NCBI GenBank assembly: GCA_016744535.1
Contig: JADGEE010000007.1
Coordinates: forward strand, 1-51,601
Direction of reading: 5' to 3'
Source of the DNA: Campylobacteraceae bacterium
GTDB taxonomy: Bacteria > Campylobacterota > Campylobacteria > Campylobacterales > BB28
DNA length: 51,601 nucleotides
The notes below the pieces were generated by a model. It was not told the DNA's origin. It saw nothing but the letters and a program-made list of their open reading frames with translations, and did no database searches. Below are positions 8,474 to 27,686 of this stretch, piece after piece (position 1 is the first letter of the stretch; each line of letters opens with the position of its first letter). Position numbers and translations under genes: made by a program.

Positions 8474-9970
8474 TTAAGCTCTTATCAAAAATAGTTTAAA
8501 TAGTTTAAAAATTAATGCAATAAAATTATATTCTAAATTAGATTCAAATAAAGTTATCTTTTTTTCATCTTTTTTTAATACTTTTTTATTATTAACTTCA
8601 AGATAAGTAACTTTTTTATCATTTAAATTATCTAACTCATCAACTTTTATAACTCTTATACCATTAAATTTAGTATTATTTGAGTGATAATTATTATAAT
8701 CTAAAATGCAAATACCGGTGATATTAATCTCTTTTAAAAGAAGCATATTTTTAAAAAGATATACAATAAATTTACCATCTCCAATTAAAACTACATCTTT
8801 ACCTATGGCATTTTTCAATTTAGTTGATATTCTCTTTCTTAAATATATATTCATAATTTTTTGTACATATTTTCTTATATAGTGATAAAAAGTATTATAT
8901 GTTCTAAAAAAGTAGAGTTTTTTTAGGCTATTTTGAATAAATTTTAATTCACTATCCATTTTATTTTTATCAATATCTACAGAATAGGTATAATCAAAAA
9001 GACTATTAACTCTATATGGAAAATAAGTTGTAAAGAATTTTAAATATAATAAAAACTTATTATTTACTGGTTTAAAATTTTTATTTAACTTCTTATAATC
9101 TGTATAACTATCACTTTTTATCTCAAAATCTAAAGCACAACCTTCACTTAAATTAGACATACAAGCCATATTATCACTATTTTTAAAGCTTCTATCTACT
9201 AAACTCCAGTAATCAGAGGCATAACACTCTATAAGATCTTTATTTGAATCTGTAAATTTTTTTGGATTAATTGCACCATAAAGAGTATTAAAAGCTTTTA
9301 TATGAATATTTTGACTATCATTAAATTTGTAATTATAGCCTTTCCAATTACTTGGTATACCTACCTTTAAAGAGTAAAAATAATCATTATATGCCCTAAT
9401 ATTATCTATTTTATTAAATATTAAATTTTCATCTATGTAACCATCTTTTTCAAGTATATTAAAAAAATATGATTCTATATTTTCATCATGTGATATTCTA
9501 AGAGGATGATATATTATTAAATCTTTACCTTTCATAATAAAAGATAATATATTAGATAAAAAATATTTTGAATATAAAAGTTCAGGAAGTATTAATATAT
9601 TATATGAATTATTTTCATAACTTTTTTTTAAACTATGTTTTAGTGATTGGTGAAAGATATGGTTACTTTTTGACATATTAGGACTATATATATTAAAACA
9701 ATCCAATATATTTATACTATCTTTTAAAAGCTCTTCGTCAAAAATTATATTATCAAAAAAATTAGTTAATTCGTTAAATTTATTTAAGTTTTTTAAATAA
9801 TTTTTAGCATCGTTATCTGTATAAATAGCAAATTCTGTATAGAAATTATCTTTTAAAATTAATTTAGCTTCTTCTGTAAATAGAGATTTAATAGCAAAAT
9901 TTAAAAATAGTTCTGTATATTTTTCACCCCAAACAACAACTGTAAATCTTAATGAAATTTTCTCTTTCAC
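8474..9970 (-). CDS. Hypothetical glycan-locus protein (possible glycosyltransferase-like N-terminus, Rossmann-like C-terminal segment)
   Basis: 498-aa ORF coupled by a GTGA overlap; FTVVVWGEKY start and VVLIGDGK segment. Function not recognised. Confidence 0.55.
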   Translation of the reverse strand: MKEKISLRFTVVVWGEKYTELFLNFAIKSLFTEEAKLILKDNFYTEFAIYTDNDAKNYLKNLNKFNELTNFFDNIIFDEELLKDSINILDCFNIYSPNMSKSNHIFHQSLKHSLKKSYENNSYNILILPELLYSKYFLSNILSFIMKGKDLIIYHPLRISHDENIESYFFNILEKDGYIDENLIFNKIDNIRAYNDYFYSLKVGIPSNWKGYNYKFNDSQNIHIKAFNTLYGAINPKKFTDSNKDLIECYASDYWSLVDRSFKNSDNMACMSNLSEGCALDFEIKSDSYTDYKKLNKNFKPVNNKFLLYLKFFTTYFPYRVNSLFDYTYSVDIDKNKMDSELKFIQNSLKKLYFFRTYNTFYHYIRKYVQKIMNIYLRKRISTKLKNAIGKDVVLIGDGKFIVYLFKNMLLLKEINITGICILDYNNYHSNNTKFNGIRVIKVDELDNLNDKKVTYLEVNNKKVLKKDEKKITLFESNLEYNFIALIFKLFKLFLIRA

Positions 9971-10692
9971 ATAACTCCTTCTTTATAATTTGTTAAAAAA
10001 AATTTATATATTTGTGCTATTGCATAGCTCTCTAGTGTGCCTATATCTCTGTGATATATATTATTATGGAAAATATATATTTTATTTAAAAAATTTGGTA
10101 TTACTTCTGTACTTAAATCTATCTCTTTTTTATTAAGTTTCTCTAAAAATTCAAATATAGAAGGTTCCATTATGTATACAGCTGCATTTGCTAAGTTTGT
10201 TGGAGGATTTTTTACTTTTTCAAAAAATTCTTCTACTACACCATCTTTATTAAGAGATATTACACCACACTGTGTTGGATTATCTGTTGTAAATGTCATC
10301 ATTGTTATTTCACAACCATTTGGTCTATTTTTATGAGCATCTACAAAAGCATTAAAATCACAAAAACTAAGATTATCAGCGTGTACAACCATAAATACTT
10401 CATCTTTTAAATACTCTTTAGAATTTAAAATAGTACCTCCTGTAAGCAATAACTCCTCTTCATAAATTAATTTAATCATATTTTTATATTTAGAGTTTTT
10501 TACATACTCTTGTACTTGCTCTTTTAAATAGTGTGTATTTACTATAAATTCATTTATTCCAATATTAGATAAATTATCTAACCAATACTCCATTAACGGT
10601 TTTCCATCTATTGGTACTAAACATTTTGGAATATAATTAGTAATAGGTCTTAATCTTGTGCCTAATCCAGCAGATAAGAGTAGTGCTTTCAT
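9967..10692 (-). CDS. Sugar-1-phosphate nucleotidyltransferase (NTP_transferase; HddC/mannose-1-P guanylyltransferase-like)
   Basis: LLSAGLGTRLRPIT..PKCL, FFEK, ANAAVY and DIGT motifs. Confidence 0.88.
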   Translation of the reverse strand: MKALLLSAGLGTRLRPITNYIPKCLVPIDGKPLMEYWLDNLSNIGINEFIVNTHYLKEQVQEYVKNSKYKNMIKLIYEEELLLTGGTILNSKEYLKDEVFMVVHADNLSFCDFNAFVDAHKNRPNGCEITMMTFTTDNPTQCGVISLNKDGVVEEFFEKVKNPPTNLANAAVYIMEPSIFEFLEKLNKKEIDLSTEVIPNFLNKIYIFHNNIYHRDIGTLESYAIAQIYKFFLTNYKEGVM

Positions 10693-12161
10693 TCTAAAAT
10701 CTCTTTCTTTATCTCTTCTAAATTAAGAGGAATATTTCCAACTCTTGCAACTTGACAAGCAGCTGCAATAGATCCTATATATGCACTTTCAATTACACTT
10801 GCTCCTGCTGATATAGCCATTGCTGAAGTTATCAAAAGAGAATCCCCAGCTCCAGCTACATCTTTTGGATTAGAATTAAGTGCTTCGATTTGATCTGTTA
10901 TCCATTTCTCTTTATCATTACTATCTCTATTTGCATGAATTAATACACCTTCAGAACCAAGAGTAATAAAAACATTTTTAATGCTACTTTTATTTCTTAA
11001 TTTTTCTGCTAATACAATTAATCCTGATTCAAAATCATTTACTCCAAGTCTAGCTTCTCTCTCTGTTGGTGTAACTAAAGACATATTTTTAAATTTTGAA
11101 ATATCTCCTGTCTGTGATGACGATTGACTATCAGCTACTATCATAATATTTTTTTCTAAGCCTAATTTAGTGATTTTATCAATTAACCTTTGAGGAAGAG
11201 CCCCATAACTAAAATCAGAAAATACTATTAAATTTTTATTATCTATAACTTCTGTAATATCTTCAAAAATTTTATCCTGAGTCTCTATATCTATATGATG
11301 TTGTTTTAAATGATTTACTCTAAGAAGTGTCTTTTTATTAGCTCTAAATCTCTGTTTTAGAGTAGTTGGTCTTGATGTATCAATATATGTATAGGCATTT
11401 ATTTTATACTCTTTTATTTTATCTTTTGTAAAATCAGCATAATTATCATTACCTAATATTGTAAAAAAATCAACTTTTGCACCAAGTCCAGATGAGTGTG
11501 CTGCTACAATACCTGCTCCTCCAATAAACATATTTGATGAGATGGGACTAACTACAATTGTAGGGTCTTCTTGACTCATCCCCAAAGGCTCACAAGTAAT
11601 ATACTCATCTATAATTGTATCACCTATAACTAATATATTTAAATTTTTAAATTTATCTAAAATAGATACTATTTTATTTGGATCTATTTTATGCCTTTTA
11701 GTATAAGCCAATGGTTTTTTAATATTAGAAATATCTACATCCATAAACTCATTACGTAAAAGCGATAATGATGAAAATCTTATATCACCTGAGCCAAATA
11801 TAAGCTTTCCACCATAAGATTCAATAACTTTTAGTTCAATGTTGAATTTATTTTCATGTTCATTACCTTTTACTACTATATCTGGTCTCAACTCTTTTAT
11901 AAATTCAATAACATCAGTCTCTATAATAAAAGAGTAATCCACAAATAAAGAGTGAGATAATGCTTCTAATCTTAAATTAGCATCTATCAATATATCATCA
12001 CTAGAATCACCTTCTAGTCCTACAACTAGAAAACCACCATTATCTTTTGCAAATTTAAGTAATCTAAGGTGTCCTGGATGAAGAATGTTAAATTTACCAT
12101 AGACAAATACTATTTTTTTATCTTTTGCTTGTTCAATAATTTGCTCTATATTATTAAGCAT
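10689..12161 (-). CDS. Bifunctional cytidylyltransferase-like + PfkB sugar kinase (HldE/RfaE-like, reversed domain order)
   Basis: N-terminal GKFNILHPGH (HxGH) and PDIVVKG; C-terminal VIGDTIIDEY, GGAGIVA, FSDF and DVAGAGD. Confidence 0.85.
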   Translation of the reverse strand: MLNNIEQIIEQAKDKKIVFVYGKFNILHPGHLRLLKFAKDNGGFLVVGLEGDSSDDILIDANLRLEALSHSLFVDYSFIIETDVIEFIKELRPDIVVKGNEHENKFNIELKVIESYGGKLIFGSGDIRFSSLSLLRNEFMDVDISNIKKPLAYTKRHKIDPNKIVSILDKFKNLNILVIGDTIIDEYITCEPLGMSQEDPTIVVSPISSNMFIGGAGIVAAHSSGLGAKVDFFTILGNDNYADFTKDKIKEYKINAYTYIDTSRPTTLKQRFRANKKTLLRVNHLKQHHIDIETQDKIFEDITEVIDNKNLIVFSDFSYGALPQRLIDKITKLGLEKNIMIVADSQSSSQTGDISKFKNMSLVTPTEREARLGVNDFESGLIVLAEKLRNKSSIKNVFITLGSEGVLIHANRDSNDKEKWITDQIEALNSNPKDVAGAGDSLLITSAMAISAGASVIESAYIGSIAAACQVARVGNIPLNLEEIKKEILE

Positions 12162-13215
12162 CGAAACACCACTGTCTAATAGGCTTTTTACTTAAGGTTG
12201 CTTTTAACATACGAATTTTAGCTGTAATTGAAGCTAATAAAAATAGTTTGTTTTTTAGAAAAATAGGAATCCATATGCTACCACCTCTTGGTGTTTGATA
12301 ATATTCAATAACATCTATATATATTTCCGAAGAGCAAACATTTTTAAGTTCATAATACGCCTCAAAAAATGAAAATGGACTATTTTTTTGAAAAATTCTA
12401 ATTATATGTCCCATTATGATGTATGAATAATAATACTTAAGATAATCAAAATTATTATTTGCAAGGCGATTGGAGACTACGCTATAAGAGGTCTCTAACA
12501 TATGAAATTTATCTTTTGTTACTTCGTCAGACAAAGAAGCATAATCTAAATTTACACAATAATGGTAAAGATTATTATTTAATACATATACTTCTTTAAT
12601 TTGAATTAAATAGCATATATTAAATAAAACATCTTCATATCTTCTCAACTTCGTATCAAATTGAAGATTATTTTTTCTTATTACATCAAGCACATATAGT
12701 CTGCCCCAAATATTGCCAGCTGTATGTGCTCTTGCACGAATTGATTGGGAATGTTCCAAGTCAAGCGTATTTAAATTCAAAAAATCATCTATAAATATTT
12801 TTTTAGATTCTAGCTTGAAGGGATTACGTGCCACTTCCTTATTTTCACTAAACATATGGCTCATATATGTACAAATTGCAAGTTCTATATTATTCTTTGT
12901 TATAGTTGCAAGTAAAACTTCAACGATTGAGCTATCTATGAAGTCATCTGCATCAACGAACATCAAATACTCTCCTTTTGCCAAGCTAATACCAAGATTC
13001 CTCGCAGCAGATGGACCAGCATTTTTTGATGATGTATATCTTATTCTGTTGTCAATAGCTGCGTAATTCTCACATATTGCTCCACTATTATCAGTAGAAC
13101 CATCATTAATTAATAAAACTTCAATATTTGCATATGACTGAGAAAGTACACTATCAATACAAGTTGATAAAACAGATTCAGCATTATAAACTGGAATTAC
13201 AATAGAGACTAACAT
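12154..13215 (-). CDS. Glycosyltransferase family 2
   Basis: VSIVIPVYNAE, INDGSTD, NAGPSAARNLG, FVDADD and ED motifs. Confidence 0.92.
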   Translation of the reverse strand: MLVSIVIPVYNAESVLSTCIDSVLSQSYANIEVLLINDGSTDNSGAICENYAAIDNRIRYTSSKNAGPSAARNLGISLAKGEYLMFVDADDFIDSSIVEVLLATITKNNIELAICTYMSHMFSENKEVARNPFKLESKKIFIDDFLNLNTLDLEHSQSIRARAHTAGNIWGRLYVLDVIRKNNLQFDTKLRRYEDVLFNICYLIQIKEVYVLNNNLYHYCVNLDYASLSDEVTKDKFHMLETSYSVVSNRLANNNFDYLKYYYSYIIMGHIIRIFQKNSPFSFFEAYYELKNVCSSEIYIDVIEYYQTPRGGSIWIPIFLKNKLFLLASITAKIRMLKATLSKKPIRQWCFDA

Positions 13216-14483
13216 AGGTTACTACTATCAATATTCAAATATTTTTTATAAGGCAAAGGCTTTTTTACTTGTATGGCCGCTTCTATAAGTCCAACGCTAT
13301 AGTCTCGGCCTGGACAAAAAGAGCAAGCTTTCAGATATTTTTGTCCTGAATTTAATTTAGCAATTTTTCTTTTTATAGAATCATCGTCTAATTTCATTAA
13401 ATCAAATTCATCCTCATAATATTCAGGGGGAATGGCTTTAAGATTTGTAACATTTGCAGAAAATGGGCAAGTATAAACTTTTCCGTGCAACAAAGTTAGT
13501 GCATCATTTACACAACAATTTCCAAAAACACTGCACAACTCATTCTCTGTTCGATTTACAAATTCTATTTTCGCACAGTCTTGCCATTTATCTACATCAT
13601 ATGCAATAAAATGTATTTTCATTTTAATTAATAAATTTTTTAATTCTGTAATCTTTTTAGATATTTTTCCATAGTCTGAAATTATCAATGTAACTTTAGA
13701 ATTTTTCATTGATTCAATCGTATCACTATTTGGAATTATTGTGCCATTTGTAAATATAGTGATTTTTTTACATTTCTTATAATTTGACAACTGTTTTATA
13801 ACCGTAGATATATCTTTATAAAGAAATGGCTCGCCACCAATTACTCTAGCCTCATATAATTCATCTATATTATGCATGAAACGCTCAATTGAAGTCTCTA
13901 GTACTTTAGTGTCATTATCTTTAGGTTTCTCATAGTATTGCATTAAATTTGAACAATTCTCACAACGTAATGAGCATTTTTCAGTTAGTACTACATCTAA
14001 ACTTTTTACTTTTATTACATCTGGTTTTTTGGATGCGTCAATGGCAAACATATATGAATCAAGCATCCAGACCAGGCGGTCAATTGGTGCAAATGCTTTC
14101 ACTTTGGACAAATCAAGTTCAAAAAATAAAAAATCACAATCAAATTTCATGAGATTATCGTTACTTTTAATTTGCTCTGACATGTAATTAAACCTAAGAG
14201 ATGCTATTACTACAGCTGTGTATGAGGTGGATTTTTTTAGTTCATTGACAGATATTACTTTATAGCCCAGAAAATCATTACCGCAATTGGTATCGTTGTA
14301 ATCACAAAAACAACTTATATTAATATTATGTTTTTTTAATGCATGCAAAGCAAGTGCTCCATAATTGCCTGTCCCAAATATAATTATATCTTTATAGTTT
14401 TTCAAGCTTTGCAAGTTATCTTCGATGTTAAAAATTTTTATATCTGATTTATAATTCAACGGGCTATATTTATATTTCATCAA
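13209..14483 (-). CDS. Radical SAM protein with N-terminal Rossmann-like domain and Cys-containing C-terminus
   Basis: CSLRCENC, GGEPFL and FTNGT; N-terminal IIFGTGNYG; C-terminal YTCP...CSFC. Confidence 0.85.
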   Translation of the reverse strand: MMKYKYSPLNYKSDIKIFNIEDNLQSLKNYKDIIIFGTGNYGALALHALKKHNINISCFCDYNDTNCGNDFLGYKVISVNELKKSTSYTAVVIASLRFNYMSEQIKSNDNLMKFDCDFLFFELDLSKVKAFAPIDRLVWMLDSYMFAIDASKKPDVIKVKSLDVVLTEKCSLRCENCSNLMQYYEKPKDNDTKVLETSIERFMHNIDELYEARVIGGEPFLYKDISTVIKQLSNYKKCKKITIFTNGTIIPNSDTIESMKNSKVTLIISDYGKISKKITELKNLLIKMKIHFIAYDVDKWQDCAKIEFVNRTENELCSVFGNCCVNDALTLLHGKVYTCPFSANVTNLKAIPPEYYEDEFDLMKLDDDSIKRKIAKLNSGQKYLKACSFCPGRDYSVGLIEAAIQVKKPLPYKKYLNIDSSNLC

Positions 14484-14493
14484 TTATCCTTTA

Positions 14494-16293
14494 TCATTTA
14501 TTTGCTCTCATTCTTTGTACAATTCTTTTAAGTGAACGCTCTATTCTCTTTTTAGACATATCATATATATCTGGATATATTTCTTTTAGTTGAGGAACTT
14601 CTATAGAGTTATTTTGCCTTCTCTCTTTTTTTAAATAAGATATCATTAAGTGAGTATACCAAAATAAATTTTTTATAAACCAATCTACTAATTTATCTGG
14701 AAAAACTGTAATTAATTTAGAAGCAAAAGAAATAGCAACTAATCTCTCTATCTTCATTTTATAGTAAATTATCTTATTATGTTTTTTATAATGATTAGAT
14801 GTTAAATTATATCTTGCTCTCGTAGCATTAAAAAGATTTAATATATCTTGATTTATTTTACTCTTTTTAGAGATGTTTTTATAAAAATATCTGGTCGCCT
14901 CAAGAATTATTAGCCGTTTCCAAAACATCACATCTTTTAATGGTATTCCAGTAACATTAACATAAGTATATAGTCCAGCTTTTTGCTCAACTAATCCCTC
15001 TAAATATTTCTCTTCCTCATCAATAGTTTTAAAAATACCAATTTCTCTAGCATAATCATAAGTTGGCGTTCCTGGAAATATTATAAGTAAATTAGTTGAT
15101 ATATAACCAGAATTAAAAAATTCACTTGGTTCAACTCCAATTTGCAAACAAAGCTCACCTAACATCTTTCCAGTTTCTCTGACTGTATCATTATTCTCAC
15201 CAGGAAGTCCAATCAACATCTGTAAACGAGACATAATACTATTTTGCATTGTATTTACTATTCTAGATAAAACTCTCTGAACTGTAAATTTTTTTTCCAT
15301 AACATCTAATATAACTTGGCTTCCAGATTCAACACCATATTTTAACTCTACACAGTTATGATTTTTATAAAAAATAATATCATCATCATCTACATTCACA
15401 CATCTCACTCCACTAGCAGACCAGAACAGTTTATGTTTTTTAAATAACTTTGCAACTTCGTGTGCTTGTCTCTTATTAGCACCGAAATTTTCATCCATTA
15501 TATTAATAAAACCTACATTAAATTTCTCTATTAAATAAATTAAATATTTTTCAATCTCTTTAACATCATAAACATCATAACCTGAAGATGATCTTTGACA
15601 AAATGTACATGTTGCCGTACACCCTTTGGAAGTATTAATTGAACCAACACCTTTATTAAGTGCTAAATATTCAGCAGTTATTTTATTATGTATCCATGCT
15701 GCTGAATCAGTGGCTTTACTATCATATGAAAAGTTAAAAATTTCATAATCAGGGTTTTGCAGATTATTTACTTTCTCCCCATAACCATTACTATATAATT
15801 TACTTTTATATTTATAAGCAATCCCCTTAATCTTTTTCAACTCTTCATGAACTATCTCTCTTCCATATTTTTTATGATAATTCAAAAGCTCTATCCATGA
15901 CTTTTCACCAGCACCTAAAACACATATATCTAAATCTGTTCTCTCTAATAAAACATGGTAAGTAATAGCCATATTACCACCAACAATAATTAAACAATCT
16001 TTTAGTGTTTCTCTAATAATTTTTGACATTCTTTTAACTTGAGAGTATGAACTAGATATTACCGCACTCATACCTACTACTGTAGGCTTAACTCTTAAAA
16101 GATATTCTCGTATCTTTTGGTCATCAGGTAATATTGTTGCAGTATCATAATAATCATATGTCTCACTATCATAACCAAATTGTTCCATATATTTTATTAT
16201 AGATTGAATCCCCATACGAACTGGTTTTGTATCTTCATTATTTTTAATAAGTTCAACTGATTCATTAGATATTGAAAACAATGATATCATCAT
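14494..16293 (-). CDS. Cobalamin-binding radical SAM protein (class B methyltransferase-like)
   Basis: VVGMSA/IIVGG/GAGE B12-binding-type segment; SKGCTATCTFC, DENF, GVESGS, IGLPGE and FPGT. Confidence 0.85.
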   Translation of the reverse strand: MMISLFSISNESVELIKNNEDTKPVRMGIQSIIKYMEQFGYDSETYDYYDTATILPDDQKIREYLLRVKPTVVGMSAVISSSYSQVKRMSKIIRETLKDCLIIVGGNMAITYHVLLERTDLDICVLGAGEKSWIELLNYHKKYGREIVHEELKKIKGIAYKYKSKLYSNGYGEKVNNLQNPDYEIFNFSYDSKATDSAAWIHNKITAEYLALNKGVGSINTSKGCTATCTFCQRSSSGYDVYDVKEIEKYLIYLIEKFNVGFINIMDENFGANKRQAHEVAKLFKKHKLFWSASGVRCVNVDDDDIIFYKNHNCVELKYGVESGSQVILDVMEKKFTVQRVLSRIVNTMQNSIMSRLQMLIGLPGENNDTVRETGKMLGELCLQIGVEPSEFFNSGYISTNLLIIFPGTPTYDYAREIGIFKTIDEEEKYLEGLVEQKAGLYTYVNVTGIPLKDVMFWKRLIILEATRYFYKNISKKSKINQDILNLFNATRARYNLTSNHYKKHNKIIYYKMKIERLVAISFASKLITVFPDKLVDWFIKNLFWYTHLMISYLKKERRQNNSIEVPQLKEIYPDIYDMSKKRIERSLKRIVQRMRANK

Positions 16294-16302
16294 AAATTTT
16301 CC

Positions 16303-17415
16303 TTAGATAAAATTAATATGCTGTGGCTTTTCGCCTTTAGGTTCTCTTAATTTTATGTCACCTTTTTCATAAGAGTCTAAAAATTCATTTACTTTATGTT
16401 GCAAACATAATGAACCACACATTTTTTGAGCATTAAAATTTGGTGATGCTAAATAGTTCATCACTTCCCAATATCTATCACTTTGTAACATATCTTTAAA
16501 TCTTGTATGTACAATATTACCTATATGAAATTTTTTATATTTTTCGTTAAACAACATTCCACAAGGAGCTACAAGTCCTGAACCTGACATTTGTATTTGA
16601 AATGGAGGGCCATAACATCTTTGATAATCTCTTTTACCATCAGAACTTATTTTAGACCATTTTACTACCACTTTATACTCATCATCAGAATAACTCTCTG
16701 CCTCTTTTAATATAGGTTCTATCTCTGCATATTTTGAATAATCAACTCCCAATGCACCATCTTCACTATCTGATGTATGTTTTATTACCAAATAATCTGG
16801 TCTTAACTCTTTACCTAATTTTGCAAGTGGAATAACTTGGTCTGCATCTTGTGGCATTAATACCATTTGCATACCTATTGTTACATCAAGATTATTTTTT
16901 TTCTTTATCTCTACCATATCTTTAATATTTTGACAAACTTGTTCAAACCAAGCCTCTTTAACACCCATAACTTCCGAATATCTTTTTGCTTCACCAGCAG
17001 AAATATTTACTCTTAGGTAAGTAAGATGAGGTAAAATTCTCTCTAAAGCATCTTTTTTTAAATTGTATCCGTGTGTAGCAGTTGCCATTGATAGCCCAAG
17101 TTTAGAGCCTCTCACTACCATATGTTCAAAGTGTGGAGATAATGTACTCTCTCCATCACTTACTAAACTAATAGCTTTAACTCCAACTTCTACACAATCA
17201 TCTAAAAAATTATCAACAACTTCTCTTGTTATATCAAATCTGTCATTTTCTTGTAATCTTGCATAACAAAAACTGCAACCAAAATTACAAGCTCTAGTTA
17301 ATGACATATCTATTGTAATAGGAGCAATTCTTTCACCTTTTGCCCACTTCTCTATCCTCTCTTTATGCCAAGCTATTTTTGTAGCATCTAAAATCAACTC
17401 TTTGTTTTCAATCAT
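16303..17415 (-). CDS. Radical SAM / SPASM-twitch domain protein
   Basis: CNFGCSFC and DGES; C-terminal CYGP..APC..IGNI..CGSLC; ends HINFI. Confidence 0.88.
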   Translation of the reverse strand: MIENKELILDATKIAWHKERIEKWAKGERIAPITIDMSLTRACNFGCSFCYARLQENDRFDITREVVDNFLDDCVEVGVKAISLVSDGESTLSPHFEHMVVRGSKLGLSMATATHGYNLKKDALERILPHLTYLRVNISAGEAKRYSEVMGVKEAWFEQVCQNIKDMVEIKKKNNLDVTIGMQMVLMPQDADQVIPLAKLGKELRPDYLVIKHTSDSEDGALGVDYSKYAEIEPILKEAESYSDDEYKVVVKWSKISSDGKRDYQRCYGPPFQIQMSGSGLVAPCGMLFNEKYKKFHIGNIVHTRFKDMLQSDRYWEVMNYLASPNFNAQKMCGSLCLQHKVNEFLDSYEKGDIKLREPKGEKPQHINFI

Positions 17416-17419
17416 AATA

Positions 17420-18127
17420 CTATTTCCTACTCTTTTGTCTTACTCTATTATTATCTATTTTTTCTGTATACATTACCTCAATAGGTACTTTTAAAACTTT
17501 TTGTATATATTTTTCTAACTCTAATAAAAAGTGACCAACATTTTTTAAACTTTCGTTATAGACTAAAAATTCTACTCTCATTGGCTTAATAACAGATATA
17601 GAATAGTCACAATCATTTTGATTTATATCTTTAAAATAGCTATCTATTAATTCATTTAATTTTTCTTTTTTTATATTATCACTTAACTTTACCCACTCTT
17701 TTACTGATGCCACTATATAAGCATTACCTGTTGGTGCATTTTTTATTTTTTGTTTATATTGTTTAAAACAATCTCTTATTAAGTCTTGAAGTATTAAAAA
17801 CTCTTTTAATGTATTATTTGGTGTGATAATTCCATCAATAGGCTTTTTACTTGCATCTCTTAATAAATATTCTAATCTTAATACTCCATGATTGCTAGCT
17901 TCTATAATTGGTAAATTAATAATAACACTACAAAAAGCATTTAAAATACCTTTCATAATATCATCTATATTACTTTCATTATAGCTGACACTTGTTATCA
18001 TATGACTTTTTGTATCTACTTCTAACTTTAATGTAATATCACTACTTATAGATATTATCTCTATTTTATTTTCTACAAATTTGAGTATATTATTTTTATA
18101 TATTTCTATCACTATTTTCTTCCTCAT
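17420..18127 (-). CDS. Hypothetical protein resembling a degenerate NifU (IscU-like + Nfu-like domains) without canonical Cys motifs
   Basis: ORF is coupled by an ATGA overlap. Pattern similarity by eye only: LKLEVD...ITSV, LPIIEA, LSDNIKKEKLNELI, LEKYI..VL...IEV. Confidence 0.45.
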   Translation of the reverse strand: MRKKIVIEIYKNNILKFVENKIEIISISSDITLKLEVDTKSHMITSVSYNESNIDDIMKGILNAFCSVIINLPIIEASNHGVLRLEYLLRDASKKPIDGIITPNNTLKEFLILQDLIRDCFKQYKQKIKNAPTGNAYIVASVKEWVKLSDNIKKEKLNELIDSYFKDINQNDCDYSISVIKPMRVEFLVYNESLKNVGHFLLELEKYIQKVLKVPIEVMYTEKIDNNRVRQKSRK

Positions 18128-18612
18128 CTACATCTTAAATAAACTGGACCATTATGTTTAAACATCTGCTTAATTTGCTTTTTTAAATTATCTTTATTTG
18201 GTGCAAGTAGTAAAAAATTTTTAAAAATTGACATCATAGTAATATCATCTTCATCCATACAATGACTTCTACCTAATTTATCAAAATAGTTATTAGCCCC
18301 AACTCCAATTAATTTAATATTCATATTATGCTCGTTCAAGTCATATCTAATTTGCTCATAAGCTCTCATTACTAAAAATGGAACTTGCGAATAAACTAAA
18401 GGTTTTAGTCCTGCTAAATACATTCCTCCAGCCATACTAATAGTTGCTTGTTCACAAATACCAACATTAAAGGTCCTATTTGAGTAATTATCAAAAAAAT
18501 CGTCCAGTACTGCAAAACCCATATCACCAACTAAAAGAGCCATCTTTTCATCATATTTAAAGTAGTTATAAACTTCACTCATAACCTCTTGTTTTGAAAC
18601 TAACTCACTCAT
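18124..18612 (-). CDS. Transketolase-like pyrimidine-binding subunit (no C-terminal domain)
   Basis: LVGDMG, NVGICEQ, MRAYEQIR, GRSH and GPVYLR. ATG at 18612 preferred over the GTG at 18621. Confidence 0.85.
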   Translation of the reverse strand: MSELVSKQEVMSEVYNYFKYDEKMALLVGDMGFAVLDDFFDNYSNRTFNVGICEQATISMAGGMYLAGLKPLVYSQVPFLVMRAYEQIRYDLNEHNMNIKLIGVGANNYFDKLGRSHCMDEDDITMMSIFKNFLLLAPNKDNLKKQIKQMFKHNGPVYLRCR

Positions 18613-19399
18613 CACTACCACCTATTACATAACCATCTTCAGTTGGACATCTAAAATGGTGAGAAATTGAATTTTCTAATATATCAATCCCTTTACCCTT
18701 TACTGTATCACATACTAAAATAGAAAAATTGCTATTTTTATTGTTAAAAAATTTATCAATAGAGTTAAACAACTCATCTTCATTATGTCCATCAACTTTA
18801 TTAAAATTATCACTATAAGAGTTTAATACTTTTGCCAATCTATCATTATCTAAACCAACGTCGGCAACTCTATCCATAGCTTGTAGACCATTTGCATCTA
18901 CAATTAAGAGTAAATTATCAAGTTTAAATCTATAAGCGAGTGCTAATGCTTCAAAATTACTTCCCTCTTGCATTTCGCCATCACCAACTATACAAACAAC
19001 TCTATTTGGTAAATTTTGCATTTTAAATGCTTGTGCTATCCCAACAGCTATAGGTAAACCGTGTCCTAATGAACCAGTTGAAGCCTCAATCATATAATCT
19101 AAATTTTGTGTCAAACACCCTTTTATAGTTGCACCATCTCCATAAAATTTTTCTAATTCAAAATCTGGTAAAAAACCAAGCTCATTTAATATGATATAAT
19201 AAGAATAAGAGCCGTGTCCTTTACTAAATATTACTCTATCTCTAGTATTATCGGTTGCATCACTTTTATTATATTTTAAAAAGTCACGAAATAGAACTGT
19301 TAGCATTTCAACACAAGAGAGTGAAGGGGCTAAGTGTCCAGCTCCTGTTTTACAAGATAATTCAATCGTTTTTTTTCTAATTTCATAAGAATTTAACAT
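18605..19399 (-). CDS. Transketolase-like N-terminal (ThDP-binding) subunit
   Basis: GHLAPSLS, SKGHG, STGSLGHG, GDGEMQEG..N, DGH and TVKGKG. Confidence 0.9.
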   Translation of the reverse strand: MLNSYEIRKKTIELSCKTGAGHLAPSLSCVEMLTVLFRDFLKYNKSDATDNTRDRVIFSKGHGSYSYYIILNELGFLPDFELEKFYGDGATIKGCLTQNLDYMIEASTGSLGHGLPIAVGIAQAFKMQNLPNRVVCIVGDGEMQEGSNFEALALAYRFKLDNLLLIVDANGLQAMDRVADVGLDNDRLAKVLNSYSDNFNKVDGHNEDELFNSIDKFFNNKNSNFSILVCDTVKGKGIDILENSISHHFRCPTEDGYVIGGSDE

Positions 19400-20388
19400 T
19401 ATTTTTTACCTAAGTATTTAAACCAATCTTTGGTGGCTTTGCCAATATTTTTTTCATCCCATAGTGGAGCTTCTCGCCATAATTCTATATTTTCAAGCAT
19501 AATTTTAACTCCATCTTCAAATTTCACTTTAGGTTTCCATCCAATAGCCTCTTTTAATTTTGTAATATCTGCATATGTACAATCTGGCTCACCTGGTCTT
19601 TTTGGAATATAAACTTTCTCACCACCAAGAAGCTCAACCAAATAGTTTACGCTATAAGTGTTATCACTACCTACATTAAATATCTCTCCAGTTATGTTTG
19701 AAATAGCCATAGAGTAACAAGCATCTACAATATCAGTTACATAAGTAAAGTCTCTAGTTTGTTTGCCATCACCCACTATTGTAAGAGGTTTATTATTTAA
19801 TATTTGTGCTAAAAAGACACCAAAAACTGCACCATAAGTACCACTTGTTCTATGCCTTATGCCATATACATTAAAAAATCTCATAGATACAACAGGGATA
19901 TCATAAATTTGTCCCCAATGCATAACATACTGCTCACCTACTGTTTTTGTAAGTGCATAAGGATATTCTGGTTTTATAGGAGATATTTCAGGTGTAGGGT
20001 AAATTTCTGGAATACCATAACAAGATGAAGATGCAGCATATACAAATTTTTTTAAGTTTTTAGATTTTTTAGAGGCTTCTAAAACATTAATTGTTCCATC
20101 TACATTAGCTTTATGATATTTTAATGGATTATTTATTGACGGAACAATGTCTGCAAGTGCTGCATAGTGAAACACATAATCTACATCTTCAAAATACTCA
20201 TCTAAGTTAATTGAATAATCACTTATATCTATATTCAAAAATATTACTTTATCTTTATGGTGAGCAATATTTTGTAATTGACCATTTGCTAAATTATCTA
20301 TAACCGTTACTTCAAAATTTCTATCTATTAATAAGTCAACCATATGAGAGCCTATAAACCCAGCACCTCCTGTAACTACTGCTTTCAT
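19399..20388 (-). CDS. NAD-dependent nucleotide-sugar epimerase/dehydratase (extended SDR)
   Basis: VTGGAGFIGSH, ASSSCYG, YALTK (YxxxK), RFFNVYG and RDFTYV. Confidence 0.93.
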   Translation of the reverse strand: MKAVVTGGAGFIGSHMVDLLIDRNFEVTVIDNLANGQLQNIAHHKDKVIFLNIDISDYSINLDEYFEDVDYVFHYAALADIVPSINNPLKYHKANVDGTINVLEASKKSKNLKKFVYAASSSCYGIPEIYPTPEISPIKPEYPYALTKTVGEQYVMHWGQIYDIPVVSMRFFNVYGIRHRTSGTYGAVFGVFLAQILNNKPLTIVGDGKQTRDFTYVTDIVDACYSMAISNITGEIFNVGSDNTYSVNYLVELLGGEKVYIPKRPGEPDCTYADITKLKEAIGWKPKVKFEDGVKIMLENIELWREAPLWDEKNIGKATKDWFKYLGKK

Positions 20389-20397
20389 TAATATTCC

Positions 20398-21492
20398 TTA
20401 TATAAAATTAATATGCTTATTTGGATGTTTTAATTTCCATAAATATCTATTTACCTCATCCATTCTACAATTTACTCTACAATTTTTTATATCTAATTCA
20501 TTTTTAATATAATTATAAGATTTTTTTCTCTTATCACTTTCCCATATCTCTTCAAAACTATTTTCATAAATATTTCCATAACAAAACTTATCTTCTCCTA
20601 GATATGCACTACATCCAAATACATTTCCGTCAGTTGCAATATAAGCCCAAAAAAATGGAGTGGAATAACATTTATCGTAAGGTTGTTTTTTTTCAATATA
20701 TTTTTTCATTGTATTTGCTCTAAAAACTACATTAAAGTTTTCATCAGAAATCTCTTTTAACTCATCTTCTATATCTACCATTTTAGAGTAATCTATATTT
20801 TCATATTGAGTAGTTTCACTAAAAAGATGTTGTGAATATGGCTTTACAACCAAGTAATTAACTCCTAAGCTTTTACAAGATGATGCTAAAATTTTTGCTT
20901 CATCTTTATTCTCTGGAAGTAATAACATCTGTACACCTATTGTGCAATCTAAATTATTTGCTCTTTTATGCTCTATTGCATATTTTATATTGCTCATAAC
21001 TCTCTCAAAATCTTTCTCTTTTGTTTGATGAATTTGAGCATAAGTCTTAGCAGTTCCTGCGTTTAAACTAATTTTTATCCAAGAGCAATTCTCAACACAT
21101 CTTTCAATATTTTTCTTATTAAGAGGTACAAAATTAGTAGTAAGAGAGGTATCAATTCCTACACTCGTACAATGCTCTACTATTAAATCTAAATCTTTAA
21201 ATAGTAGCGGTTCACCCTCTCCTGCAAACATAACACTTTTAACACCTTTTTTTGCCATATTTGTAAGTGTATTTTTTAAAACTTCAAAATCTAATCCTAT
21301 GTTCTCATATCCCATATAGTCTAATGCACAAAAAGTACATCTATGGTTACAGCCTCCATAAGGGGAAATTTCCACATAAATTGGATATACACTCTTTAAT
21401 TTTTCCCACTCACTATTAGATTCATACCATCTTGAGACTCTTGTTGGATGATAAATTAACTTATGGCTATCAATAGCATACTTATCACTCAT
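20398..21492 (-). CDS. Radical SAM / SPASM-twitch domain protein, paralog of 16303..17415
   Basis: CNHRCTFC and GEGEPL; CYSTP..FGC..YGNI..CRVNC; ends HINFI. Confidence 0.88.
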   Translation of the reverse strand: MSDKYAIDSHKLIYHPTRVSRWYESNSEWEKLKSVYPIYVEISPYGGCNHRCTFCALDYMGYENIGLDFEVLKNTLTNMAKKGVKSVMFAGEGEPLLFKDLDLIVEHCTSVGIDTSLTTNFVPLNKKNIERCVENCSWIKISLNAGTAKTYAQIHQTKEKDFERVMSNIKYAIEHKRANNLDCTIGVQMLLLPENKDEAKILASSCKSLGVNYLVVKPYSQHLFSETTQYENIDYSKMVDIEDELKEISDENFNVVFRANTMKKYIEKKQPYDKCYSTPFFWAYIATDGNVFGCSAYLGEDKFCYGNIYENSFEEIWESDKRKKSYNYIKNELDIKNCRVNCRMDEVNRYLWKLKHPNKHINFI

Positions 21493-22066
21493 TTATAGTA
21501 CCTTTATGGATATAATATGAGTATATAATATGGTCAAGTATCATATGAACATCTTCAACTAAACCATACTCACCTTTTGGTGCATCTACATGAAAGTTTA
21601 TATTACTTAAAGATTTTAACTCTCCACCATCAAAACCGGTCACACCAATAATATTTGTGCCTATCTCTTTAGCATATTGAACAGCTTTTATAATGTTTGG
21701 TGAGTTTCCGCTACAAGATATAGCTATAATTATATCTTTTGGTTTTAATATATTTTTAAGTTGCATATAAAAAATATTTTCATATCCAATATCATTAGCA
21801 ATTGCTGAAGTTACAGCTGAATTATCTCCCAAAGAGATAATATCAATATCTCTTATATCTCTTCTTTTTAAGCCTATACCTAAATCATTTGCCATATGTG
21901 AAGCAGTTGCAGAACTTCCTCCATTGCCTATTACATAAACTTTAGAGTTATTTTTTATAGTTTTTTCAATACTAATTTGAATATCTTTTATTGCATCTAA
22001 ATCTATTTGAGTTAATAATTCTTTTAATCTATTTATATAATTAATTGTAAATTCTTTAATTTCCAT
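21485..22066 (-). CDS. gmhA: Phosphoheptose isomerase-like SIS protein
   Basis: GNGGS, AIANDIGY, ISCSGNSPN and EDVH. Confidence 0.82.
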   Translation of the reverse strand: MEIKEFTINYINRLKELLTQIDLDAIKDIQISIEKTIKNNSKVYVIGNGGSSATASHMANDLGIGLKRRDIRDIDIISLGDNSAVTSAIANDIGYENIFYMQLKNILKPKDIIIAISCSGNSPNIIKAVQYAKEIGTNIIGVTGFDGGELKSLSNINFHVDAPKGEYGLVEDVHMILDHIIYSYYIHKGTINE

Positions 22067-22067
22067 T

Positions 22068-22580
22068 TTATAACCCTTTTCCTTTTAACTTAGAAATAGA
22101 TATAGTTTCATTTTCATCTAAAAGTATATTTTTACCTATTTTAGCTTTTTGACCTGCTAAAATATCTCTTTTTTTATCTCCTATTAAAATTGATTTCTCT
22201 AAATTTATATTAAACTCTTTTTTAGCTTTTAAAATCATACCCGCTTTTGGCTTTCTACATTCGCACTCTATTTTATACTTTTCTTTAGCATTAGTTGGAT
22301 GATGTGGACAATAATAAACCTTTTCTATTCTAACATTTTTATTTTTAAACTCTTCTATCATCCATTTTGTCAATTTTAAAAAATCATCTTCACTATAATA
22401 ACCTCTTCCTATTCCAGATTGATTAGTTATTACAAATATCATAAATCCTTTATCTTGGAAAAATTTACAAACTTCAAATATACCTTCTATAAATTCAAAA
22501 TCATCTATTTTATAAAGATAATTTTTATCTTTATTTATTACTCCATCTCTATCTAAAAAAAGAGCTTTAGAAAGTTTCAA
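22068..22580 (-). CDS. gmhB: Heptose 1,7-bisphosphate phosphatase (HAD IIIA)
   Basis: FLDRDGVIN, TNQSGIGRG, CPHHP..CECRKP and IGDK..D. Confidence 0.9.
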   Translation of the reverse strand: MKLSKALFLDRDGVINKDKNYLYKIDDFEFIEGIFEVCKFFQDKGFMIFVITNQSGIGRGYYSEDDFLKLTKWMIEEFKNKNVRIEKVYYCPHHPTNAKEKYKIECECRKPKAGMILKAKKEFNINLEKSILIGDKKRDILAGQKAKIGKNILLDENETISISKLKGKGL

Positions 22581-23623: not shown

Positions 23624-23640
23624 AAATTTATACCTTAAGT

Positions 23641-24720
23641 TTATTTATCAAATATATATCTATTTTCACCAACACCATATTTCCATATAATATCATCTCT
23701 ATTCTTCATATTATAAATATTCTCTACTCTATCAAAATCAACACCTCTAGTTAATCTTTTAATATTTTTAAATCCAATATTACTTAAAATCTCTTCTAAC
23801 TCCTTTGGAGTAAGCCTTGTATTAATAGGAACCATAATATGGTCAAGTATATAAAAAATTCTATTCTCAGGAACACCAAACATTTTAAATAAATCTCTTG
23901 CATATTGATGATTAACAGGCTTCATCACAAGTCTTAATAACTCTACAACATCCCAGTGTACTCCACCTGGTTTTTCCATTAAATATAAAAATCCCTGTGC
24001 ACCACTTTTCATAATTCTAAAAATTTCTCTCAAACCTTCTTGAATAGATACAGTGTGATGTAAAACACCATTTGAAAAAACAAAATCAAATTTACCATCT
24101 TCGAAAGGTAATTTTAAAACATCTCCTTGTTTATATTCAACATTTTCAATATTTTTTAAATCTTTTCTATAATTAGCTGTCTTGAGATTAATTACACTCC
24201 AATCGATTCCATAAACCTTTTTAAAACCCATCTTTTTTAAAGCAAGAGTATATCTTCCTCCACCACAACCGTCATCTAAAGCTACTTTATTTTCAATATT
24301 ATCTATAACAATACTATTTCTATTAAATCTTGTTTTTAATAACTCAAAAGCCTCTTCATAGTAATGGTATTCACTAAAATTTTCAAAAAGTTTTCCATAG
24401 TGCTCTTTTGTTATTTCATCAAAAGCACTCTTCTCTTTTGATAGAGATTTAAAATCTATTTTATCTTTATATATCTCTAAGTTATTAGCTAATATTTTTG
24501 CTACTTCAATTTCAGATAGTAAAATTTTACTTATTTCTGAAACAGAGAACTCTTTCGTTTGTAATTTTTCTATTTTATGAAATAAATCATAAGTTATATA
24601 AGTTCTTATAAAAAAGCTATCCTCTTCTTCACTTAAATTTGAAAAAAAATCAACAAACTTTTTTGCCTCTTTTGAGTATGGAGAACCATTTGTTAAACAA
24701 TCTATATCTGCTGTAAACAA
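23641..24720 (-). CDS. Class I SAM-dependent methyltransferase
   Basis: LDDGCGGG, GID and LPFEDGKFDFVFSNGVLHH; TTG start. Confidence 0.88.
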   Translation of the reverse strand: MFTADIDCLTNGSPYSKEAKKFVDFFSNLSEEEDSFFIRTYITYDLFHKIEKLQTKEFSVSEISKILLSEIEVAKILANNLEIYKDKIDFKSLSKEKSAFDEITKEHYGKLFENFSEYHYYEEAFELLKTRFNRNSIVIDNIENKVALDDGCGGGRYTLALKKMGFKKVYGIDWSVINLKTANYRKDLKNIENVEYKQGDVLKLPFEDGKFDFVFSNGVLHHTVSIQEGLREIFRIMKSGAQGFLYLMEKPGGVHWDVVELLRLVMKPVNHQYARDLFKMFGVPENRIFYILDHIMVPINTRLTPKELEEILSNIGFKNIKRLTRGVDFDRVENIYNMKNRDDIIWKYGVGENRYIFDK

Positions 24721-24722
24721 CT

Positions 24723-26874: not shown

Positions 26875-26913
26875 ATTTATATTCCCTCTGTTCTTAAATC
26901 TTCTGTATTAGAA

Positions 26914-26922
26914 ATTATATCA
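26914..26922 (-). promoter_or_regulatory. Extended -10 promoter (TGATATAAT) for the glycan locus
   Basis: ATTATATCA on + strand, 40 bp upstream of the 26874 start, with a GAGGGA RBS in between. Confidence 0.6.
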
Positions 26923-27398: not shown

Positions 27399-27686
27399 AA
27401 TTCTATTCCATTTTTTACAGCTTCTTGCTCTATTAACCTGCCTTTATCTTTAGATATAATTACATCAATCTTTTGTTCTCCAATTTTAAATTCTAAATCT
27501 ACTAAAAATTTTATTTTTTGCTTATAAAGGTTCTCTTTTTTTAATGTTTCTATTATACAAGTCAATATCTCCACCTCTTTTTGTATCATCTACACGACTT
27601 CCAAAAAGAGTGATTTTTACACTTTCGCCAAAATTTTTTTTTGCAACTTCCTTTATAGATTTAATTTCAAAATCACTCAACCTCAT
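27395..27686 (-). pseudogene. Minimal nucleotidyltransferase (MNT) antitoxin, frameshifted
   Basis: ATG 27686 gives MRLSDFEIKSIK...LFGSRVDDTKRGGDIDLY. One extra A near 27554 shifts the frame; the other frame continues IETLKKENL...IGEQKIDVII...GIEL*. Confidence 0.85.

Follow-up and report, generated by a model that had tools for sequence, protein, structure and literature searches.

Three superfamilies of thiamine diphosphate (ThDP)-dependent enzymes, the split-gene transketolases, the E1 alpha/beta enzymes and the YerE-like enzymes, are the only ones known to accept ketones, and those of the YerE-like and E1 types branch deoxy-keto sugars, as far as the available part of the source extends (PMC12247030). 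YerE-like enzymes are associated with yersiniose, erwiniose and caryophyllose, and the alpha-KADH2 (E1 alpha/beta) type with aldgarose, kibdelomycin and avilamycin. Here, we analyzed a 51,601-nt stretch of DNA from a Campylobacteraceae bacterium (assembly GCA_016744535.1, contig JADGEE010000007.1, positions 1 to 51,601; hereafter the window), in which a split transketolase is encoded among radical S-adenosylmethionine (rSAM) enzymes and genes resembling those of heptose activation. An initial annotation of the block at 9967-24720 had proposed that natural-product-style radical chemistry is used there to build a chain-extended or branched surface sugar. The block lies in the middle of an array of 25 genes for glycan biosynthesis and, judged by comparison of homologous loci, consists of a conserved nine-gene module with lineage-specific additions. 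With moderate confidence and on in silico support, we propose that this core makes a nucleoside diphosphate (NDP)-heptose, which a radical enzyme would convert to a keto sugar for C-branching (or side-chain extension) by the transketolase.

The most conserved gene of the system encodes a twitch-type rSAM enzyme, rSAM-370, and was used to collect related loci. One genome per species was scanned, and all 25 proteins of the array were compared with the loci by tblastn and by clustering of open reading frames (ORFs). This produced 55 rSAM-370 loci with 55-90% identity in Campylobacterota, Pelagibacter/SAR11, SAR116, Verrucomicrobiota, Elusimicrobiota, Planctomycetota, Bdellovibrionota, Nitrospinaceae, Colwellia and other hosts. 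A conserved core was identified with the fixed order SIS-domain isomerase, second twitch-type enzyme (rSAM-364), short-chain dehydrogenase/reductase (SDR), transketolase N-subunit, second transketolase subunit, a 235-aa protein (U235), rSAM-370, a cytidylyltransferase-PfkB fusion (CT-PfkB) and a nucleotidyltransferase (NT241). The core was syntenic in loci L011-L016 from Sulfuricurvum and Arcobacteraceae metagenome-assembled genomes (MAGs), with 55-83% identity, and rearranged in four loci of other lineages (L026, L031, L042 and L032, the last from a Colwellia MAG). Within the order of the window, orthologs of rSAM-370 with at least 62% identity were present in five of 300 other genomes, four of which keep the core (G252 and G279, and without U235 also G235 and G205), while the locus in the fifth, a genome of the same genus, is interrupted by the end of a contig. 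Ten of the 13 transketolase-type loci, and no others among the 55, carried orthologs of rSAM-364 (at least 45% identity), and a second nucleotidyltransferase of the RmlA/HddC type always adjoined CT-PfkB in relatives. Because only nine of the 15 genes in the block recur together, we treat the system as a module to which single lineages have added genes. Co-occurrence of the block elsewhere therefore held for the core, which is syntenic in relatives, but not for the B12-binding and Rossmann-fused rSAM enzymes, the GT2 glycosyltransferase, GmhB and two methyltransferases, all of which are local.

ThDP enzymes were common neighbours of rSAM-370. Of the 55 loci, 37 had one at a distance of no more than 10 kb, as did 28 of the 34 loci that spanned at least 15 kb, and it usually adjoined the rSAM-370/U235 pair directly. 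Three types were represented, namely split transketolases (13 loci), E1 alpha/beta enzymes (17) and acetolactate-synthase-like proteins with TPP_enzyme N/M/C domains (9); at two loci, two types coexisted. Among solved structures, the closest relative of the TPP_enzyme type was JanthE (8rph; 3.9e-102, compared with 5e-73 for a true acetolactate synthase), which is a YerE-like lyase according to the available part of its description (PMC12188165). As three ThDP families with reported or proposed keto-sugar branching replace each other at this position, we propose a two-carbon addition by the transketolase. Natural gene fusions were also found, since among 17 long homologs of rSAM-370 two were joined to YerE-like enzymes, one to an E1_dh/Transket_pyr protein and one to an RmlD_sub_bind reductase. 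The known substrates of all three partner families are NDP-keto sugars. Together, the adjacency and fusions of rSAM-370 to the three ThDP superfamilies lend independent in silico support to the branched half of the radical-chemistry proposal. In addition, DegT aminotransferases, a family that uses keto sugars, were encoded in 29 of the 55 loci.

The transketolase of the window is indeed split, as annotated initially, with Transketolase_N and Transket_pyr encoded in two genes. The top Protein Data Bank (PDB) match of the N-subunit was 6yak, described as 'N-terminal component of the split chain transketolase' (4.9e-39). GDGEMQEG...N and GICEQ are present in the sequences, and we take the GDG...N pattern to be the ThDP motif and the glutamate of GICEQ to be the activating residue. 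No Transketolase_C domain was detected in the 165-aa second subunit, in which Transket_pyr was the only domain found, and orthologs of this subunit in L012-L016 (67-79% identical) have a similar length of 163-175 aa. A natural E1/pyr-rSAM fusion (P0124) likewise has no Transketolase_C domain.

Alignment of 30 rSAM-370 orthologs from many phyla gave a mean column identity of 74%. Seven cysteines were invariant in these sequences, three in the N-terminal part (C43, C47 and C50) and four in the C-terminal part (C267, C285, C333 and C337), and the latter suggest the presence of an auxiliary cluster. The AlphaFold model (predicted local distance difference test, pLDDT, of 86.7) was most similar to the DesII structures 8hzv and 8hzy in Foldseek searches (E 7.8e-15, TMq 0.59-0.68, with 0.68 for 8hzv), followed by SkfB, SuiB, BlsE (TMt 0.72), anSME (E 4.5e-11) and viperins, with BtrN at 6.7e-8. 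PDB sequence matches were remote and included SkfB (9e-10), BlsE (6e-5) and DesII (5e-3), and rSAM_desII and viperin were among the weak NCBIfam matches. The protein database holds 6119 clusters related to rSAM-370 at E<=1e-20, a number that includes paralogs, all of which are named 'radical SAM protein' or similar. rSAM-370 and rSAM-364 are 31% identical to each other. A second tier of relatives with 39-44% identity to rSAM-370 occurs in five genomes of the same order (L079-L083) and is distinct from both proteins. The 13 long homologs that are not fusions (P0126-P0134 and P0136-P0139) contain insertions of ~300 aa, and intein/Hint/LAGLIDADG Pfam domains were recognized in 11 of them; inteins are unusual in a sugar-tailoring rSAM enzyme, and their presence fits the extreme conservation of this one. 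Most insertions directly follow residue ~50 at the CxxxCxxC motif, with one located near residue 285 and one near residue 214.

Directly adjoining rSAM-370 is U235, a gene that had been overlooked in the initial annotation of the block. All domains named in that annotation were confirmed by Pfam at their positions and on the minus strand, including the four rSAM enzymes (two of SPASM/twitch type, one B12-binding and one Rossmann-fused), each of which carries CxxxCxxC in its translation. Homologs of U235 were detected in 39 of the 55 rSAM-370 loci, mostly in a longer form of ~360 aa, and the family comprises 1178 representative clusters at E<=1e-3 in a library of 1.84 billion proteins and has no Pfam model. 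A PDB sequence search with U235 returned no match, and an Atlas search returned nameless clusters only. The model of U235 (pLDDT 90) has an N-terminal half that may be IscU-like, and its best Foldseek matches were all IscU/ISCU structures, although weakly so (E 4e-3 to 3e-2, TMt 0.5-0.6) and over ~111-118 columns only. In an alignment of 32 family members no cysteine was found among the invariant or near-invariant columns, and the cluster ligands of IscU were not matched. Most homologs outside Campylobacterota carry an additional ~130 aa at the N-terminus with a conserved LRGF...WVPD, which is absent from the 235-aa form in the window.

Complex prediction for rSAM-370 and U235 reached an ipSAE of 0.86, compared with 0.01 for the best of three controls. 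In a calibration that is only rough, because own alignments were used, 58 of 80 solved complexes and two of 110 mismatched pairs scored as highly. Contacts agreed by at least 80% between runs, the partner was modeled with a pLDDT of at least 83, and the predicted interface (rSAM-370 residues 24-30, 263-271, 291-297 and 313-332; U235 residues 78-105, 134-138 and 197-223) includes residues that are invariant in both families. U235 is thus predicted to be a partner subunit that binds rSAM-370. The idea that U235 supplies the missing C-terminal domain of the transketolase was rejected, since its homologs mostly occur without any transketolase and its predicted fold rather resembles IscU.

The sugar-activation genes of the core belong to the families of heptose biosynthesis and lie at a distance from their characterized members. 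GmhB was the only enzyme of the block above curated NCBIfam cut-offs (TIGR00213, 202.9 against 149.6 bits; NF006506, 189.6 against 178 bits). The SIS protein belongs to the SIS fold family and scored 108.6 bits with the gmhA model TIGR00441 (cut-off 209.45). In CT-PfkB, the kinase domain reached 186.2 bits with rfaE_dom_I (TIGR02198; cut-off 345), which was still its top match by far (ribokinase, 53 bits), and the transferase domain 66.8 bits with rfaE_dom_II (TIGR02199; cut-off 181.5). The initial names for the GmhA and the kinase/nucleotidyltransferase therefore stand at the level of the family but not of the equivalog, while that of GmhB stands fully. The domain order of CT-PfkB is reversed relative to HldE, with CTP_transf_like at residues 20-106 and PfkB at residues 175-477. 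An HPGH motif is present in the CT domain, and G22, F24, H28, G30 and H31 do not vary among 28 orthologs. NT241, which scored 87.2 bits with the HddC equivalog (cut-off 300), has orthologs of 58-81% identity that adjoin the CT-PfkB gene in relatives. The closest PDB sequences of the SDR, which is 73-83% identical in relatives and contains 'ASSSCYG' and YxxxK, were UDP-hexose 4-epimerases.

The genomic context of these enzymes was informative as well. The host genome (3.02 Mb, 99.98% complete, low G+C) encodes no GT9 heptosyltransferase, and CT-PfkB contains its only RfaE-domain-I-like kinase and its only RfaE-domain-II-like domain. As this sole RfaE-type kinase lies in the window, GT9 enzymes are missing and a classical gene set is located on another contig (C69), the heptose-activating genes appear dedicated to the pathway of the cluster and not to the lipopolysaccharide (LPS) core. 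No HldE or HldD above the cut-off was found in the genome, and the LPS core of the host is apparently without L,D-heptose. The separate set on C69 is of the GmhA-HddC-GmhB-HddA type, and its gmhA is closer to the family (201.4 bits). Within positions 1-16000 of C69, asparagine-synthase-like and FAD oxidoreductase genes are followed by GmhA, an NTP_transferase, GmhB and a GHMP kinase (classical GDP-heptose type), and the glycan locus continues with a DegT aminotransferase, a xylose-isomerase-like TIM barrel, a B12-binding rSAM enzyme (643 aa) and two SDRs.

Taken together, these data can be arranged into a pathway. The SIS protein, the PfkB domain, GmhB and a nucleotidyltransferase, for which the families are shown and the substrate is inferred, would convert sedoheptulose-7-phosphate to an NDP-heptose. 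The rSAM-370/U235 complex may then abstract a hydrogen atom from the sugar in a DesII- or BtrN-like manner and thereby generate, by oxidation or dehydration, a keto or deoxy-keto sugar nucleotide, to whose carbonyl the split transketolase would add a two-carbon hydroxyacetyl unit. Putative roles of rSAM-364 and the epimerase-type SDR are adjustment of stereochemistry or removal of oxygen. Host-specific tailoring would follow, in which the B12-binding and Rossmann-fused rSAM enzymes and the two methyltransferases add modifications and the GT2 enzyme transfers the sugar. Given that genes for nonulosonic acids and O-acylation surround the core, its product probably forms a single residue within a larger, complex glycan, located on the cell surface or linked to protein.

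Other arrangements of the same genes were considered. In a lincosamide-like order of events, the transketolase would first build an octulose or nonulose phosphate, the SIS protein, PfkB domain, GmhB and a nucleotidyltransferase would activate this to an NDP-octose or NDP-nonose, and the rSAM enzymes would only tailor it later. Such a pathway is in line with the resemblance of the gene set to known isomerase-kinase-phosphatase-nucleotidyltransferase sets, with the closer gmhA copy elsewhere in the genome and with the scores of the SIS protein and both HldE-like domains, which are far enough below the heptose cut-offs to make a non-heptose substrate possible; transketolases, moreover, normally act on sugar phosphates. 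However, the transketolase genes adjoin U235 and rSAM-370 in the conserved order and not the SIS gene, no transaldolase is present among the 25 array proteins, and rSAM-370 is naturally fused to E1 and YerE-like enzymes. Enzymes of these two types also fill the transketolase position in other phyla, and they use 2-keto acids and NDP-keto sugars instead of sugar phosphates, as stated in the available part of the source (PMC12247030). Extension at the sugar-phosphate level, which the initial annotation had invoked by analogy, is thus the less likely variant, and we regard it as unlikely overall. A slimmer chance is given to a pathway in which the ThDP and rSAM enzymes make a two-carbon acyl or alkyl substituent (glycolyl, acetyl or hydroxyethyl) on an amino sugar or nonulosonic acid. 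Split transketolases deliver glycolyl units to carrier proteins in natural-product pathways, and NeuB, NeuC and PseF-like nonulosonate genes flank the core in the window. PseF-like homologs occur in 10 of the 55 loci, some of which also have NeuB-like genes, and DegT aminotransferases are frequent neighbours. Against this, no acyl carrier protein, lipoyl E2 component or N-acyltransferase was recognized among the core proteins, rSAM-370 most closely resembles in fold those enzymes whose target is the sugar ring of nucleotide sugars, and a sugar substrate agrees better with its fusion to a reductase of the RmlD type, which handles NDP-keto sugars.

Two further explanations differ in whether the enzymes cooperate at all. 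rSAM-370 and the ThDP enzyme might operate as one catalytic unit, in which the sugar radical, made by 5'-deoxyadenosyl chemistry, couples directly with the ThDP-bound two-carbon enamine/ketyl, the auxiliary iron-sulfur cluster and the IscU-fold subunit handle the odd electron, and no keto intermediate is formed. We consider this direct coupling improbable; if true, an unactivated sugar carbon would be acylated by radical chemistry, an enzymatic strategy not known in glycobiology, and abundant aquatic bacteria, SAR11 among them, would carry branched higher sugars of a class that has gone unrecognised. At the other extreme, an ordinary NDP-heptose operon could simply lie beside unrelated rSAM enzymes such as peptide or cofactor maturases, and the top NCBIfam matches of the twitch enzymes are in fact maturases (tungsten cofactor maturase at 74.7 and 75.2 bits, and SkfB), all far below the cut-off. 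That the genes share no pathway is nevertheless very improbable, given that gene order is kept across families and phyla, that natural fusions to ThDP and SDR sugar enzymes exist, that no precursor-peptide or cofactor genes are found in the array, and that the genome has no heptosyltransferases to consume plain ADP-heptose.

Formation of a keto sugar by rSAM-370 and its branching by the transketolase remains our preferred explanation, and several points weigh against it. Every step of the pathway is inferred, none from an observed product, intermediate or activity. ThDP carboligases usually favour aldehydes, which makes branching of the ring no more feasible than extension of a side chain at an aldehyde outside the ring. 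Split-gene transketolases have been proposed to branch sugars in miharamycin and amipurimycin, none has been shown to do so in vitro, and all candidates so far are from Streptomyces secondary metabolism, to the extent covered by the available part of the source (PMC12247030). In six of the 34 long loci, the 10 kb on either side of rSAM-370 lacked a ThDP enzyme. U235 was undetected in 16 of the 55 loci, some of which are incomplete, and is absent in G235 and G205, that is in two of the four order relatives that keep the core, suggesting that it is not always needed. ORF clustering was crude in that the caller kept the longest of overlapping frames, and in seven of the 55 loci a longer antisense ORF was therefore called in place of that of rSAM-370, while tblastn found rSAM-370 in all 55. 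With the DesII equivalog TIGR04426, rSAM-370 and rSAM-364 scored 37.7 and 42.8 bits, respectively, at a cut-off of 450. The native substrate of DesII is a 4-amino sugar, and no DegT aminotransferase is encoded in the array of the window; because an aminotransferase is missing there, the analogy to DesII covers fold and logic and not the exact reaction. The motif of the SDR is that of an epimerase, neither of a dehydratase nor of an obvious ketoreductase. The CT domain does not contain (F/L)XXGXSTT, the motif of heptose nucleotidyltransferases (PMC11461863), and reads ...GDIRFSS... in the corresponding stretch. The proposed pathway does not account for two nucleotidyltransferase activities within one core. 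Lastly, no flippase, polymerase or ABC exporter was seen in the portion of the array on this contig.

The array is wider than first delimited, as the same tightly packed run of minus-strand genes continues on both sides of 9967-24720 and covers 293-26874 with 25 ORFs arranged head to tail by their coordinates (Table 1). It may continue beyond the contig end. Adjacent genes among the 15 co-directional genes of the block overlap by 1-17 nt or are spaced by 1-17 nt, and no terminator-like site was found on the minus strand across 9000-28200. An Rfam scan of the window gave no match, and hence no riboswitch was detected, and a promoter scan yielded 129 sites compared with 140.3 expected from shuffles, which is no excess. 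The core genes (10-22 kb) have a G+C content of 28-30%, compared with 20-25% in their neighbours. A 117-aa ORF on the plus strand (12713-13066), antisense to the GT2 gene, is probably no gene.

Table 1 Genes of the minus-strand glycan array in the window, listed by position.
Feature	Position	Strand	Evidence
NeuC-like UDP-GlcNAc 2-epimerase, last array gene before contig end	293..1447	-	Pfam Epimerase_2 222 bits
NeuB-family nonulosonate synthase	1444..2448	-	Pfam NeuB 234.6 bits
PhyH-like dioxygenase, weak match	2473..3516	-	Pfam PhyH 25.5 bits (cut-off 22)
Two proteins with a single transmembrane (TM) segment and no family, one after each MBOAT	3574-4524, 5988-7010	-	One hydrophobic segment each
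Two MBOAT O-acyltransferases	4533-5987, 7020-8471	-	Pfam MBOAT 132.5 bits each
Soluble 498-aa protein, no family, possible glycosyltransferase	8474..9970	-	No Pfam/NCBIfam match, no TM segment
Sugar-1-phosphate nucleotidyltransferase NT241, core gene 9	9967..10692	-	Pfam NTP_transferase 125.5 bits
Reversed HldE-like CT-PfkB fusion, core gene 8	10689..12161	-	Pfam CTP_transf_like (N-terminal) and PfkB (C-terminal)
GT2 glycosyltransferase, local addition	12154..13215	-	Pfam Glycos_transf_2 122.9 bits
Rossmann-fused rSAM enzyme, 424 aa, local addition	13209..14483	-	Pfam CoA_binding 24.5 bits, Radical_SAM 30.9 bits
B12-binding rSAM enzyme, 599 aa, candidate C-methyltransferase, local addition	14494..16293	-	Pfam B12-binding 39.7 bits, Radical_SAM 53.9 bits
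rSAM-370, twitch-type rSAM enzyme with DesII-like fold, core gene 7	16303..17415	-	Pfam Radical_SAM 55.1 bits, SPASM 22.5 bits (cut-off 21.5)
U235, 235 aa, no family, putative IscU-like fold, core gene 6	17420..18127	-	No Pfam/NCBIfam match
Split transketolase pyrimidine-binding subunit, 165 aa, core gene 5	18124..18621	-	Pfam Transket_pyr 43.6 bits
Split transketolase ThDP-binding N-subunit, core gene 4	18605..19399	-	Pfam Transketolase_N 93 bits
Extended SDR, 4-epimerase type, core gene 3	19399..20388	-	Pfam Epimerase 195.6 bits
rSAM-364, second twitch/SPASM rSAM enzyme, core gene 2	20398..21492	-	Pfam Radical_SAM 72.8 bits, SPASM 38.5 bits
SIS-domain sugar-phosphate isomerase, GmhA-like, core gene 1	21485..22066	-	Pfam SIS_2 80.4 bits (cut-off 27)
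GmhB heptose-1,7-bisphosphate 7-phosphatase, local addition	22068..22580	-	TIGR00213 202.9 bits (cut-off 149.6)
Two class I SAM methyltransferases, 348 and 359 aa, local additions	22577-23623, 23641-24720	-	Pfam
PseF-like CMP-nonulosonate synthetase	24723..25424	-	Pfam CTP_transf_3 89.8 bits
First array gene, soluble 486-aa protein, possible nonulosonate transferase	25414..26874	-	NF046086 BFO_1060 family glycosyltransferase 35.4 bits (cut-off 200; weak), no TM segment

The local additions have few counterparts elsewhere. None of the 55 loci contained a counterpart of the GT2 enzyme, the Rossmann-fused rSAM enzyme or either methyltransferase, and GmhB had one in only two. For the Rossmann-fused enzyme, the closest PDB match was 7wzv (1.4e-7) and partial matches of only 28-39% identity were obtained in seven of the 300 same-order genomes. 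Orthologs of the B12-binding enzyme, 77% identical and in the same position, occurred only in L009 and G004 (a same-genus genome and one MAG). Both of its domains scored above their cut-offs (32.1 bits for B12-binding and 29.5 bits for Radical_SAM), no subfamily or equivalog cut-off was reached (best match BchE, 108 of 481 bits), and it probably performs C-methylation. A phosphonate role was rejected for this enzyme, which scored 82.6 bits with the PhpK family (cut-off 600) in an array that encodes no phosphoenolpyruvate mutase. The two methyltransferases each have an unassigned N-terminal region of ~110-140 aa and show no significant similarity to each other. Homologs of the 498-aa protein (62% identical) follow the nucleotidyltransferase gene in L009 and G004, and its Atlas leads were weak (WavE, RgpF and GT2 at 0.78-0.80). 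PtmF, PtmE and LegB roles for the SIS protein, nucleotidyltransferase and SDR were likewise rejected, as the LegB score was 153 bits (cut-off 475) and the array has no aminotransferase.

Of the flanking genes, the PseF-like synthetase scored 180.2 bits with PseF (cut-off 205.7), NeuB and Epimerase_2 were identified at the Pfam level, and no further genes of a nonulosonate pathway were found on the contig. The PhyH-like gene, coding for a putative 2-oxoglutarate/Fe dioxygenase, adjoins NeuB, and its product may hydroxylate the nonulosonate or the acyl group of the latter. The MBOAT pair is a recent tandem duplication with 86% protein identity and 97.5% DNA identity over 1240 bp, and the accompanying partner proteins are 37.5% identical. 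Flagellin (42267-43754) and FliW (41845-42234) are encoded further along the window, near membrane glycosyltransferase-like genes of the PMT family (dolichyl-phosphate-mannose type) at 45744-47570 (weak match) and 49389-51488. Designation of the locus as a flagellin glycosylation island was rejected, because ~15 kb of unrelated genes (ClpA/B-type ATPase, two-component and cyclic di-GMP genes) intervene and no Maf-family protein was found at E<=1.

Both rSAM-370 and U235 represent large, well-defined families without assigned function, the latter being a new family of partner proteins. The module offers a testable hypothesis for them, in which a radical enzyme generates the carbonyl that interchangeable ThDP families then branch. 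If true, it would explain how branched sugars can arise independently of the classical pathway through 4,6-dehydratases, and surface-glycan loci would be the first setting outside Streptomyces for sugar-branching split transketolases. Since glycan loci that vary between strains carry the module in Pelagibacter, SAR116, Verrucomicrobiota, Elusimicrobiota and Campylobacterota, its sugar may be a common surface trait of aquatic bacteria, with a bearing on recognition by phages and grazers.

The initial annotation could not match the block to a characterized pathway, and neither could we, as the rSAM enzymes, SDR, transketolase, SIS protein and kinase reached no equivalog, the PDB matches of the rSAM enzymes were remote, and no paper on the module was found. 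NDP-heptose synthesis, tailoring by rSAM enzymes and branching by ThDP enzymes are each known, and their combination was not found described: a literature search that extended neither to the bioinformatic survey of branching ThDP enzymes by Krug et al. nor to supplementary files returned no paper linking an rSAM enzyme to ThDP sugar branching or to heptose tailoring in capsule or flagellin loci, and none describing the gene set. Among single enzymes, the model of rSAM-370 comes closest in structure to DesII, an rSAM enzyme that forms a keto sugar from a nucleotide sugar. Loci from other phyla often have two DegT aminotransferases beside rSAM-370, an arrangement that resembles DesI-DesII-DesV. 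In contrast to DesII, with which it shares 13-15% identity in the structural alignment, rSAM-370 has the four invariant C-terminal cysteines and a predicted dedicated partner protein. BtrN and anSME, which are also among its fold matches, share the combination of CxxxCxxC with a cysteine-rich C-terminal domain, and the conversion of a secondary alcohol into a ketone, as proposed here, is their chemistry. However, their sequence similarity is remote (BtrN was retrieved only for rSAM-364, at 1.2e-4 in the PDB sequence search), and they act on an aminocyclitol and a protein, not on nucleotide sugars.

With the keto-sugar-branching ThDP enzymes, the system shares the three superfamilies that alternate beside rSAM-370, the window being of the split-gene transketolase type. 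The deoxy-keto acceptors of such enzymes derive from SDR 4,6-dehydratases. The available part of the source names deoxy-keto sugars such as CDP-3,6-dideoxy-4-keto-D-glucose as acceptors and mentions no rSAM enzyme there (PMC12247030). The pyrimidine-binding subunit in the window further differs from branching split transketolases in having no Transketolase_C domain. The HldE/GmhA/GmhB pathway is mirrored by an RfaE-type PfkB kinase, an HxGH domain of cytidylyltransferase fold, an SIS isomerase and a bona fide GmhB, from which the window departs by its reversed fusion, domains below the cut-offs, absent STT motif, adjoining second nucleotidyltransferase and lack of a GT9 enzyme. Finally, the lincosamide GDP-octose pathway follows the same isomerase-kinase-phosphatase-nucleotidyltransferase logic together with an enzyme that forms carbon-carbon bonds. 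In the window, however, this enzyme is a ThDP transketolase instead of a transaldolase, and it is coupled to an rSAM enzyme and interchangeable with ThDP enzymes that use keto acids.

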